Origin: Eledone cirrhosa
Lineage: Eukaryota
Assembly: GCA_964016885.1 (NCBI GenBank)
Contig: OZ024740.1
Coordinates: forward strand, 2,852,001-2,916,000
Direction: 5' to 3'
Length of the DNA: 64,000 nucleotides
Both the position numbers and the translations under genes were made by a program. Under the pieces are notes generated by a model. That model was not told the DNA's origin and made no database searches. It saw only the letters and a list, made by a program, of their open reading frames with translations. This document shows, one piece after another, positions 1 to 10,965 of this stretch (positions are counted from its first letter, which is position 1; each line of letters opens with the position of its first letter).

Positions 1-143
1 CTTCTCTGATTGTTGATGAGGGACATTATGTTGTTTTGGAGGTTATGTTTTTTAATCTCTAGTGATGAAATGGCAGTCAAGTTGATGTGTTGCTGCTGAC
101 AGTATTTCAGCTTGTTGATTTTTTTGTTCGTTCTCTTAATTTT
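1..143 (-). mobile_element. 5'-truncated end of a CR1-group LINE copy (copy 0); the rest lies left of the window
   Basis: Near-identical to 2324-2467 inside ORF2 of the full copy; ends abruptly in (TA)n. Confidence 0.9.
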
Positions 144-404
144 TATATATCTATATATATATCTATATATATATCTATATATATATCTATATATATATCT
201 ATATATATATATCTATATATATATATATATATATATCTATATATCTATATATATCTATATATCTATCTATATATATATATATCTATATATATCTATATAT
301 ATATATCTATATATATATATCTATATATATATATCTATATATATATATCTATATATATATATCTATATATATATATATATCTATATATATATATCTATAT
401 ATAT
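144..404. repeat. (TA)n microsatellite with TC interruptions
   Basis: Direct reading. Confidence 0.97.
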
Positions 405-480
405 AACTTTGAAATGTTTTGGCCAGTATTGGCCCAGGCCATGTCTAACTTAATAGCACCACCTGGCGAAGTCTTTCAAT

Positions 481-7700: not shown

Positions 7701-7790
7701 ATATATATATATATATATATATATAGATATATATATATATATATATATAGATATATATATATATATATATATATATAGATATATATATAT
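4760..7790. repeat. ~3-kb (TA)n tract with C and G interruptions
   Basis: Direct reading; exact length may be assembly-dependent. Confidence 0.95.
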
Positions 7791-10700
7791 AACTTTGAAT
7801 AACTTTGAAATGTTTTGGCCAGTATTGGCCCAGGCCATGTCTAACTTAATAGCACCACCTGGCGAAGTCTTTCAATTCAGGATTTGGGCACCATGGCCCA
7901 TTCGAGAAGAGAATTACTGTTTGCGGAGACATATCCGGGTGTGGGTGGTTTGTCCGGGATTACTTGGAGGAATTTGTCCAAAGACTTCTTGAATTTTGTG
8001 TGGTCAGTTTCTGTTTTGACGTGTCCTGGTGTGATGTTGAAGAGAGCTGGGCCGATTGAGGTGAAATAATTGTGCCGTATTGTTGTTATGAGTTGCGATT
8101 TAGATTTTTGAATGGGACGGATAGCACGGGGCCCAAGCCTTGGGTGTATCTTGAAGGCGATGCCAACATCATTTGGGCAGTGATGATGGAACATTTTCCA
8201 CATCATGCAGATAATATAACGCTCACGGCGACGTTGGAGTGAGTAAAGTTTCAGGTTTTCCAATCGACCCCAGTAGTCAAGGTCTGACATGCCATCTATC
8301 TTTTTCGTGATTGCCCTTTGAGGAGCTTCAAGTTTCATGATACTTTGTTTCGTGTGGGGAGACCACAGTGGACAACAGTATTCAAGGTGTGGTCGGGCGA
8401 AAGTAGAGAAGAGAAGGATAATGGTGCGGGAATCTCTCGACTGGAAGGTTCTGAGGATCCAGGAACACATTCTGCGGGCCATGTCAACTTTGCTGCTTAT
8501 ATGCGTGGTCCAGCTTATGTTGCTGTCCACGGTTACTCCCAAGTCTCTGATGTTGTTAGATGCCACGAGAGTTTCCCCGGAGGGAAGGGAGTACGGGAGT
8601 TTCAGCGCATCCTCTTTTCCAAAGTGGATCAGTTCGAATTTGTCTTCGTTCAGTAACATGTTGTTCTTTTCTGCCCATTGGGTAACAGCCAGTAGGTCTG
8701 ACTGAAGGCTTATCCGGTCATCCACGCCATTGATGACCTTTTGGAGCTTGGAATCATCAGCGAAAATTTTAATGTTGCTGTGTTTGATGATGTCAGTGAT
8801 GTCATTAATATAGATGATGAAGAGAAGTGGGCCCAACACAGTGCCTTGTGGGACTCCACTACTGACTTTGGCTGGGCTTGATTTGACTCCCTCAACTACA
8901 ACATGTTGGGTTCTGTTTGACAGGAAGCTCTTGATCCACTGCAGCAGCTTTCCAGTGACACCAATATTGGACAGCTTTCTCAGTAGAATGTTATGATCAA
9001 CCCTGTCAAAGGCCTTGCTGAAATCAAGGTAGATAACATCAGTGTTGGAACCCTCTCCCAAGGCTCTCAAAATGTCATCAAAGTGATGCAGTAGTTGCGT
9101 CAGGCAATCCCTTCCATTACGGAATCCATGCTGGTTGGAGTTCAGCATATTGTTACTCTCAAGGAAGTGGGTCATTCGCGATCTCACCACTCGCTCAAAT
9201 ACCTTAATGATATGAGAGGTGAGTGAGATTGGACGGTAATTCACGGCAAGGGATTTGTTTCCCTTTTTGAAAACTGGGACAACAGACTGGGATAGAAGGT
9301 TTTCTGGCACATATCCAGCATCCAGTGAGTTCCGCCACAGATTGGCAAGAGGAGAAGCAAGTTGGTGTTGACACGCCTTCAAGACACAAGCAGGGAACCT
9401 ATCGGGACCTACTGCTGAATTATGCTTGATTTCCTTTATTGCCGCCAAGACATCAGGGGCGCCAAACGTTATGTCCGATAAGGTGTAATGGGGAGTAACA
9501 TCGCCGATACAGCCCAGATCGGCCATATCAGGATTGCTGAAAACAGAGCAGTATTGTTTCTGCAGTATCTCACCCATGGTTTAGCATTGTCTTGAAGAGT
9601 GCCATTTTCATCAATTAGAGGGCCAACAGTAGAGCCAGTGATTTTGTGTTTTTTTGCAAATGAAAAGAACACTTTGGGATTGAGTTTGATCTTCTCAATG
9701 GCCCAGGCCTCTTCAGCTCTTCTCTGATTGTTGATGAGGGACATTATGTTGTTTTGGAGGTTATGTTTTTTAATCTCTAGTGATGAAATGGCAGTCAAGT
9801 TGATGTGTTGCTGCTGACAGTATTTCAGATTGTTGATTTTTTTGTTCGTTCTCTTAATTTTTCTGATGAGCGTTTTTCTATTTCTAGGGATTCTGCTCTT
9901 AGATTTGTTTTATAGTTCTTAATGGGGTGTGTTTAGCACATATGTTTGTAACAGTGTCCACAAATGTCTGCCAGGACTTTTTGATGTTAGTGGGTGTATG
10001 AGTGTGCGTGAAGGACCAGTCGACATGTGCAAGATCATGACTGATCGCTTCCCAGTTTGCATTGTGGAAATCCATAGCGTCAAACGGAATGGACAGGAGA
10101 AATGACATTGGGTTTGTATATTGGACGGTGGAATCTCAGATCACAGAGAACCATGTCATGATCAGAGAGTAGAGTTTTCTCCACTGCAATATTGTGGATA
10201 TTGTCAGTGTGATTGCTGAAAATTAAGTCTAGGACGTTTTTGTGGCACCTCGTTGGTTCGAGCACTAGTTGGGATAGGAAGAAATCATCCATGAAGTCAA
10301 GAAGCGATTCCACAGCTTCCCTGTCAGAGGTTGAGGCAGAAGAACCTGGTGGCAGGGTGTTTGTGACCAGTCAACTCGGGGAGGTTGAAGTCCCCCATCA
10401 TTAAGATGTTGTCAGGGTGACACTCTTGGATGAAACACTTTATGCTGTTGAGGCATTCCTTGAAGCATGGTACAGGCGTTTGGGGTGGCCTATAGAGCCC
10501 AACTACTAATAGGTTGTTGGTTTGACTGAATACAGTGACTGCCTCACAGTATCCATTAGTGAATATGTTCATAGCCTCTGTTGAGAAAGAATTATGGACA
10601 TAAATGGCAGTTCCGCCCTTTCTTCTGCCAGCGCGATCAGCACGGATTGCTTTGAAATTTTTCACTTTCACCTCGGCTTCCAAGTGGAGGTTACTGAGAT

Positions 10701-10965
10701 GGGTTTCAGTGAGGACGAAGAAAGGGATGTGGTTTGGATGGACATCAATCCAGTCCTCCAGGAATTTGATCTTCATTTTTGAGTATTGGTGGAAGGGCTG
10801 ATGCCTTGGGCGTTAAGCAAAAATGTAGAGGCGAGAGTGGATGGTTTTAATTGTTTTGGTGTGTTGTTAATTTGTTTGTTTGTTAATGGCAGCAATGGGA
10901 GTTTGTGCAGTGGGGTGATAGTGGAGGGTGGTGCCGGGTGATAGCTCGAATGTTTTTTTCCAGTT
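7791..10965 (-). mobile_element. 5'-truncated copy 2 of the same CR1-group LINE; ORF2 broken by several 1-bp indels
   Basis: Near-identical to 405-3570; RT part open at 7877-9577, EN part split into frameshifted pieces; two copies of the 10-bp terminal unit (AACTTTGAAT AACTTTGAAA on +). Confidence 0.93.

Follow-up and report, generated by a model that had tools for sequence, protein, structure and literature searches.

A young CR1-group LINE family associated almost strictly with (TA)n microsatellites

Among LINEs with an APE endonuclease, microsatellite specificity has been described for the Tx1 families Kibi, which inserts into (TC)n, and Koshi, which inserts into (TTC)n, as well as for the R1 families Waldo, in (ACAY)n, and Mino, in (AC)n; the available parts of both sources state a role for the endonuclease in the specificity of such APE elements (PMC3812793, PMC4494074), and in the second of them a flank share of 20% serves as the criterion for target specificity. 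Microsatellites are also the targets of Dong (R4 clade, TAA), Togen (TG) and the HERO families (PMC3812793, PMC4640811), and R4, NeSL and HERO are restriction-like endonuclease elements, while target-specific LINE families in general mostly belong to early-branched lineages, Tx1 and R1 (PMC4640811, available part). As a target, (TA)n is listed solely for the rice MITE Micron in the text available from PMC3812793. For RTE LINEs, the accessible sections of PMC6007223 describe a tail-dependent choice of site with a bias of one or two bases, and for CR1, L2 and RTE an overlap between tail and target of one to several bases. Within the CR1 group, vertebrate canonical CR1 carries an esterase-type ORF1, and Zenon has no ORF1 and a poly-A tail (PMC13343379, as far as its available text goes). 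A TA-specific CR1-group family was not found in the literature searched, including the available parts of PMC4120745, PMC10294476, PMC3124438, PMC12801901, PMC11835228 and PMC13282606; Repbase entry notes and supplements lie outside this search and may record one.

The window analysed here is a 64,000-nucleotide stretch (G000:C1:2852001-2916000) of a 3.0 Gb animal genome. It contains three minus-strand copies of one CR1-group LINE, which are 99.56–99.71% identical and lie in a compound TA array of approximately 25 kb. This array begins about 5.4 kb left of the window and hosts the three CR1 copies and two Tx1-like fragments. The features are as follows.

1..143, minus strand: 5'-truncated end of copy 0, whose remainder extends beyond the left edge of the window (G000:C1 about 2850085-2852000; about 2.06 kb in total, about 1.9 kb of it outside)
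144..404: (TA)n array, interrupted by C on the plus strand
405..4759, minus strand: copy 1, both ORFs open, without 320 nt of the 5' UTR that are present in copy L118
405..480, minus strand: 3' UTR of copy 1, about 76 nt, with stem-loops (predicted fold only) and one tail unit, TTCAAAGTTA, then TA
481..3618, minus strand: ORF2 frame, 1045 aa from stop to stop, APE endonuclease and reverse transcriptase
3489..4661, minus strand: ORF1, 390 aa, with polyQ, two CCCH-like motifs and a weakly Myb/SANT-like N-terminus
3594..3600, minus strand: heptamer U UUU UUA, in phase, where ORF1 and ORF2 overlap, with ORF2 in the -1 frame; candidate ribosomal frameshift site
4760..7790: 3-kb (TA)n array, whose C interruptions give way to G close to the right end
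7791..10965, minus strand: copy 2, 5'-truncated, with two tail units
10966..12378: 1.4-kb (TA)n array
12380..13345, plus strand: 3' fragment of a Tx1-like LINE, a second family within the same compound array
13351..19859: 6.5-kb (TA)n array, the right end of the compound array

The original prediction had described three near-identical minus-strand copies with all five visible junctions opening into (TA)n, and had favored independent retrotransposition over duplication; each of these points was borne out. Interrupted (TA)n, with C or G interruptions, lies at all five in-window junctions and likewise at a sixth, the 3' end of copy 0 outside the window, and the polarity of the array changes within the window. 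The 5' end of copy 0 corresponds to position 2467 within copy 1, and that of copy 2 to 3571; the tails consist of three short units (copy 0), one unit (copy 1) and two units (copy 2). Different 5' ends, tails and private changes mark them as independent insertions. Copy 2 differs from copy 1 by 8 substitutions and six one-base gaps, and is either frameshifted or affected by assembly errors. Elsewhere, the window holds an inverted duplication of 83–88% identity (23430-30362), in which TA/CA arrays surround a Penelope-like, putatively GIY-YIG-like fragment at approximately 26700-27500, and a 66-bp satellite (35080-64000; approximately 441 copies, 96% matches).

The longest copy that we found, L118, measures 4,653 nt and extends 320 nt beyond the 5' end of copy 1. 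The number of 51-nt monomers in the 5' UTR ranges from 1 to at least 5, and a short TA run lies within this region (L118, L093, L078 and L073); at the 3' end, the family carries one to three units of TTCAAAGTTA or of a shorter variant. Re-copied pieces occur at two 5' junctions: at L079, the tail of the element recurs there in inverted form, and at L097, an internal stretch is duplicated. ORF2 matches Pfam PF14529, PF03372 and PF00078, i.e. an APE endonuclease, at about residues 60-290 of the frame, followed by a reverse transcriptase (RT), retains the catalytic motifs of the endonuclease, has no AUG ahead of this domain and is open in 5 of the 13 young copies spanning it. An AlphaFold model of ORF2 reached a mean pLDDT of 82, with human L1 ORF2p as its best fold matches; our structure search found no solved CR1-group structure. 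In ORF1, the Myb/SANT-like match (E 0.005) falls below the Pfam cut-off. The U UUU UUA heptamer is kept in three of the four older-subfamily copies reaching it (L096, L098 and L122, with one change in L120), and is also present in the three closest metagenome relatives (L203, L204 and L205), whose endonucleases are about 35% identical. Judged from this sequence context, ORF2 is likely expressed from ORF1 by a programmed -1 frameshift at the heptamer; we found no -1 frameshift described for CR1 in the literature searched, including the available parts of PMC5009743 and PMC3894237.

CR1-group elements lack RNase H and a C-terminal CCHC motif and end in a short tandem-repeat tail instead of poly-A. 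The same was found here: we detected no RNase H in the element and no C-terminal CCHC in ORF2, and the tail is a short tandem repeat and not poly-A. The order of APE and RT in ORF2, the common 3' end and the variable 5' truncation are those of APE-type non-LTR elements. In a quick maximum-likelihood RT tree of 58 of 60 rows (two without the anchor motif were dropped), the element belonged to a 32-row lineage (support 100) beside the sister CR1 family of the same genome (SH-aLRT 95), which sits on a long branch, and apart from the Tx1-, RTE- and R4-like rows. Against these in-genome anchors, which were labeled CR1, Tx1, RTE and R4 by their motifs rather than by Repbase or Dfam reference rows, the CR1-group label given in the original prediction is probably correct. 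Membership of the Tx1 clade, which carries a C-terminal CCHC, was rejected, as the RT groups apart from the Tx1-like family and this motif was not found. The same missing ORF2 CCHC argues against the R1 clade, for which the tree holds no rows. The element is not Zenon, since it has a 390-aa ORF1 and a repeat tail, nor a canonical CR1 of the vertebrate type, as a profile search at E 0.1 returned no esterase match in ORF1.

Genome-wide, a 29-mer of the 3' end had 3,650 exact matches, and its reversed control none; young 3' ends numbered 2,940, i.e. about 3,000 recent copies. Scoring covered the 81 matches that head the list for C1; without the three local copies, these are 78 copies from the first 97 Mb of C1 (19 listed and 3,550 unlisted matches were left out), to which we applied a fixed TA criterion on the 12 nt behind the tail. 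The 3' flank was of TA type in 73 of the 78 copies by script (52/55 young copies and 21/23 of an older subfamily) and in 75 by eye, the two script misses being parser overshoots at L068 and L102; the remaining three junctions were not TA even by eye. By comparison, random stretches gave a background of 6.6% (200 kb) and 6.7% (400 kb). At the 5' end, the sample comprised 48 of the 55 young copies (six reaching the 5' UTR and one abutting a gap were left out, as were the 23 older copies, whose alignments stop early); here, TA lay no more than 3 nt from the truncated end in 40 copies, against a background of 8.2%, and 8 junctions had no TA within this distance. All 48 truncation points were different, and the 3' end was common to all copies, with a precise junction directly behind the last tail unit. 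Across the whole genome, a TA-type 10-mer followed the tail in 270 one-unit and 1,729 two-unit cases (the two commonest tails; background 1.8%), a count that leaves other tail forms outside and whose patterns are not strict subsets of the 2,940 young 3' ends. Some targets are short, as at L068, L126 and L084. The claim that this family targets (TA)n is therefore supported, and the contrary outcome named alongside it, mostly non-TA flanks, was not what we found. Among the matches listed, 10 of 99 neighbor gaps were shorter than 10 kb, compared to 0.9 expected, and these ten close pairs comprised four same-strand and six opposite-strand pairs. A shared orientation is thus not a rule, and it had rightly been regarded as weak evidence. 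Copy 2 has its 5' point in common with L111; as their private changes differ, we regard this as coincidence.

We compared the element with other LINE families of the same genome. The sister CR1 family, which is equally young and carries an ATT tail, had TA at only 2 of the 26 3' ends that could be scored and at 2 of 16 5' ends (30 loci), leaving 24/26 outside TA (Fisher p 1.5e-16 for the 3' bias of the element versus this family). In an RTE family with a GAT tail, 9 of 30 copies were in TA, one of them being the copy that supplied the search pattern. A Tx1-like family (1,910 exact 3' matches genome-wide) ran into TATC or TA at all 30 sampled 3' ends (L037-L066), a sequence that can be read either as tail or as target, and 12 of the 30 passed the TA rule, the others lying in TATC. 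Part of the bias is accordingly a property of the host: several elements in this genome are drawn to TA, and the CR1-group family is much stricter. It is a real, near-strictly TA-associated LINE, specific relative to two other LINE families, and since it lies almost only in TA and its sister does not, it likely aims at TA. Ahead of the LDL motif, the endonuclease has a short loop, one residue longer than in the non-specific sister CR1, whereas that of the Tx1-like family is long; a structural cause of the specificity is thus not visible there. Several sister CR1 copies (L150, L152, L156, L158, L160, L162 and L172) open directly into minisatellites of 15–75 bp, three of the loci doing so at either end, which may reflect target-site amplification or chance. 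With about 7 of 26 sister 3' ends at minisatellites by eye, against a background coverage of 10.9% (from 8/40 windows), a general tandem amplification of target sites is weak as an explanation and was not used.

Relatives of the element also occur in other sequence sets. The closest proteins are 41–46% identical and have no informative names. In three single relatives from metagenome contigs (L203, L205 and L207) the 3' end is not in TA; in a related family from run X10, which bears another organism label, the 3' end continues into TA (54 contigs, with an agreement of 0.5). At least 11 organism labels carry the element or its close relatives, with very high depth in runs X3 and X10 and near-identical pieces at low depth in runs X6, X7, X8, X11 and X12; these occurrences may represent relatives, transfer or contamination. 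The loose-end consensus of run X3 is AT-rich and ambiguous (0.58). A search across organism labels listed no RNA holder of the element.

The flanking TA derives from the target. Both flanks carried interruptions at 29 loci, and at 25 of these their dominant interruption motif was identical (shuffle control: mean 11.4, maximum 20 in 20,000). Because these motifs agree across the element and differ between loci, the flanks are target and not tail. The length of this target can be estimated from the share of background positions that pass the rule when they start with a given word, namely 25% for TA, 46% for TAT, 71% for TATA, 85% for TATAT and 94% for TATATA. The observed 75/78 rejects all start words except TATATA (p 0.30), with p 1.6e-8 for TATA and p 0.0016 for TATAT. 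A pairing of 2–5 bases as the sole cause is thus rejected, and the data fit a target of at least about (TA)3.

Taken together, we consider it probable that the element inserts by target-primed reverse transcription at an endonuclease nick in TA runs, aided by pairing of its TTA-ending tail. The endonuclease would nick runs of at least about (TA)3, and base pairing between the tail of the RNA and the cut TA strand would prime reverse transcription. Because such a role is stated for the endonuclease of other APE elements in the available parts of PMC3812793 and PMC4494074, we infer that this enzyme is the source of specificity here; pairing of the tail is suggested by its TTA end, which passes straight into TA. 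Target-site duplications are unreadable inside TA. TA arrays might offer a safe haven, and long arrays would gather repeated insertions in either orientation, which would result in clusters like that of the window.

The main rival, which we regard as unlikely, is that hairpins or cruciforms in TA are cut by host nucleases, and that a LINE with a non-specific endonuclease uses the ends via tail pairing. The excess of long arrays (at least 300 bp at 35 of 48 young copies, compared to 12.6% of background TA bases), the polarity changes within the window and the leaning of other families to TA would all fit such host-made breaks, and the copied pieces at the L079 and L097 5' junctions resemble repair synthesis. 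However, insertions also occurred in tracts of a few dozen bases, the sister CR1 and RTE families, with their ATT and GAT tails, are far less biased, and the 3' junction follows precisely on the last tail unit. It is very improbable, and largely refuted already, that the element itself seeded the microsatellite, whether through slippage in its tail or by bringing TA along from a donor in 3' transduction: the TTA-ending tail does merge into TA and the 5' UTR contains a short TA run, but TA lies upstream of 40/48 internal truncation points and the locus-specific interruption motifs match across the element. Just as improbable is random insertion followed by loss everywhere except within TA arrays, which are presumably harmless sites, as the youngest copies (99–100% identical) are fully biased and the equally young sister family persists outside TA. 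Finally, a local duplication or mis-assembly behind the three copies, to which their 99.6–99.7% identity and the six one-base gaps of copy 2 might point, has a negligible probability given their different 5' ends, tails and private substitutions and the repetition of the pattern at 78 other loci.

With both flanks summed, and as lower bounds, the array measured at least 300 bp in 35 and at least 1 kb in 20 of the 48 young copies; in the background, arrays of at least 1 kb held 0% of TA bases in the 400 kb sampled, a small sample in which rare kilobase arrays are possible. Array length rose with copy identity (Spearman 0.39, p 0.006), and interruption uniformity had a median of 0.94 beside young copies (63 flanks), compared to 0.48 in 26 background arrays (p 4e-11). 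The arrays around the youngest copies therefore look freshly expanded: either long, freshly expanded arrays are favored as targets, or arrays are expanded by insertion. Pairing of flanks gave no valid pair of empty paralogous sites. As the arrays at the youngest copies are both very long and uniform, insertion may also lengthen them. We tentatively propose, as a possibility that we doubt more than we favor, that with each insertion a short interrupted TA seed is re-copied to either side of the element, giving uniform arrays hundreds to thousands of bases long that would attract further insertions and shrink with age; we found no insertion-linked array growth in the literature searched. If true, this CR1 LINE would build its own landing pads and be a main source of giant TA arrays in its genome. 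Several of the longest background TA arrays (L140, L180 and L196), as well as L105, come directly after one other dispersed repeat; mobile elements may thus be general neighbors of long arrays.

For the CR1 group, a family this close to strict (TA)n insertion would represent a further origin of target specificity. Intact copies exist, and together with the young sister CR1, which is non-specific, the family offers a ready pair for domain swaps on APE specificity; the long uniform arrays beside the youngest copies make LINE insertion as a driver of microsatellite expansion testable. In such genomes, TA markers and assemblies should be treated with caution, as they are unstable near copies of the element.

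Compared with canonical CR1 and Zenon, as described in the available part of PMC13343379, the element is alike in its APE and RT domains, its short 3' UTR with a repeat tail, its frequent 5' truncation and its 1–5 5' UTR monomers, and differs in forming its own 32-row sub-lineage, in its CCCH-like ORF1 and in its near-strict TA target. As in RTE LINEs, tail repeat and target overlap where the 3' end joins the flank; however, the bias in the accessible sections of PMC6007223 is one or two bases, and the RTE family of the host genome reaches 9/30 in TA, compared to 73/78 here. The target is likewise longer than the one-to-several-base overlap reported there for CR1, L2 and RTE. With Dong, Togen and HERO the element shares a microsatellite target, but it has an APE domain instead. 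One sequence type accounts for 73/78 of its 3' flanks and 40/48 of its 5' flanks, which far exceeds the 20% in the available text of PMC4494074. Like Kibi, Koshi, Waldo and Mino, it is a LINE with APE and RT domains and with most copies within one microsatellite; unlike them, it has no C-terminal CCHC, its RT groups with a CR1-type family, and its target is (TA)n.
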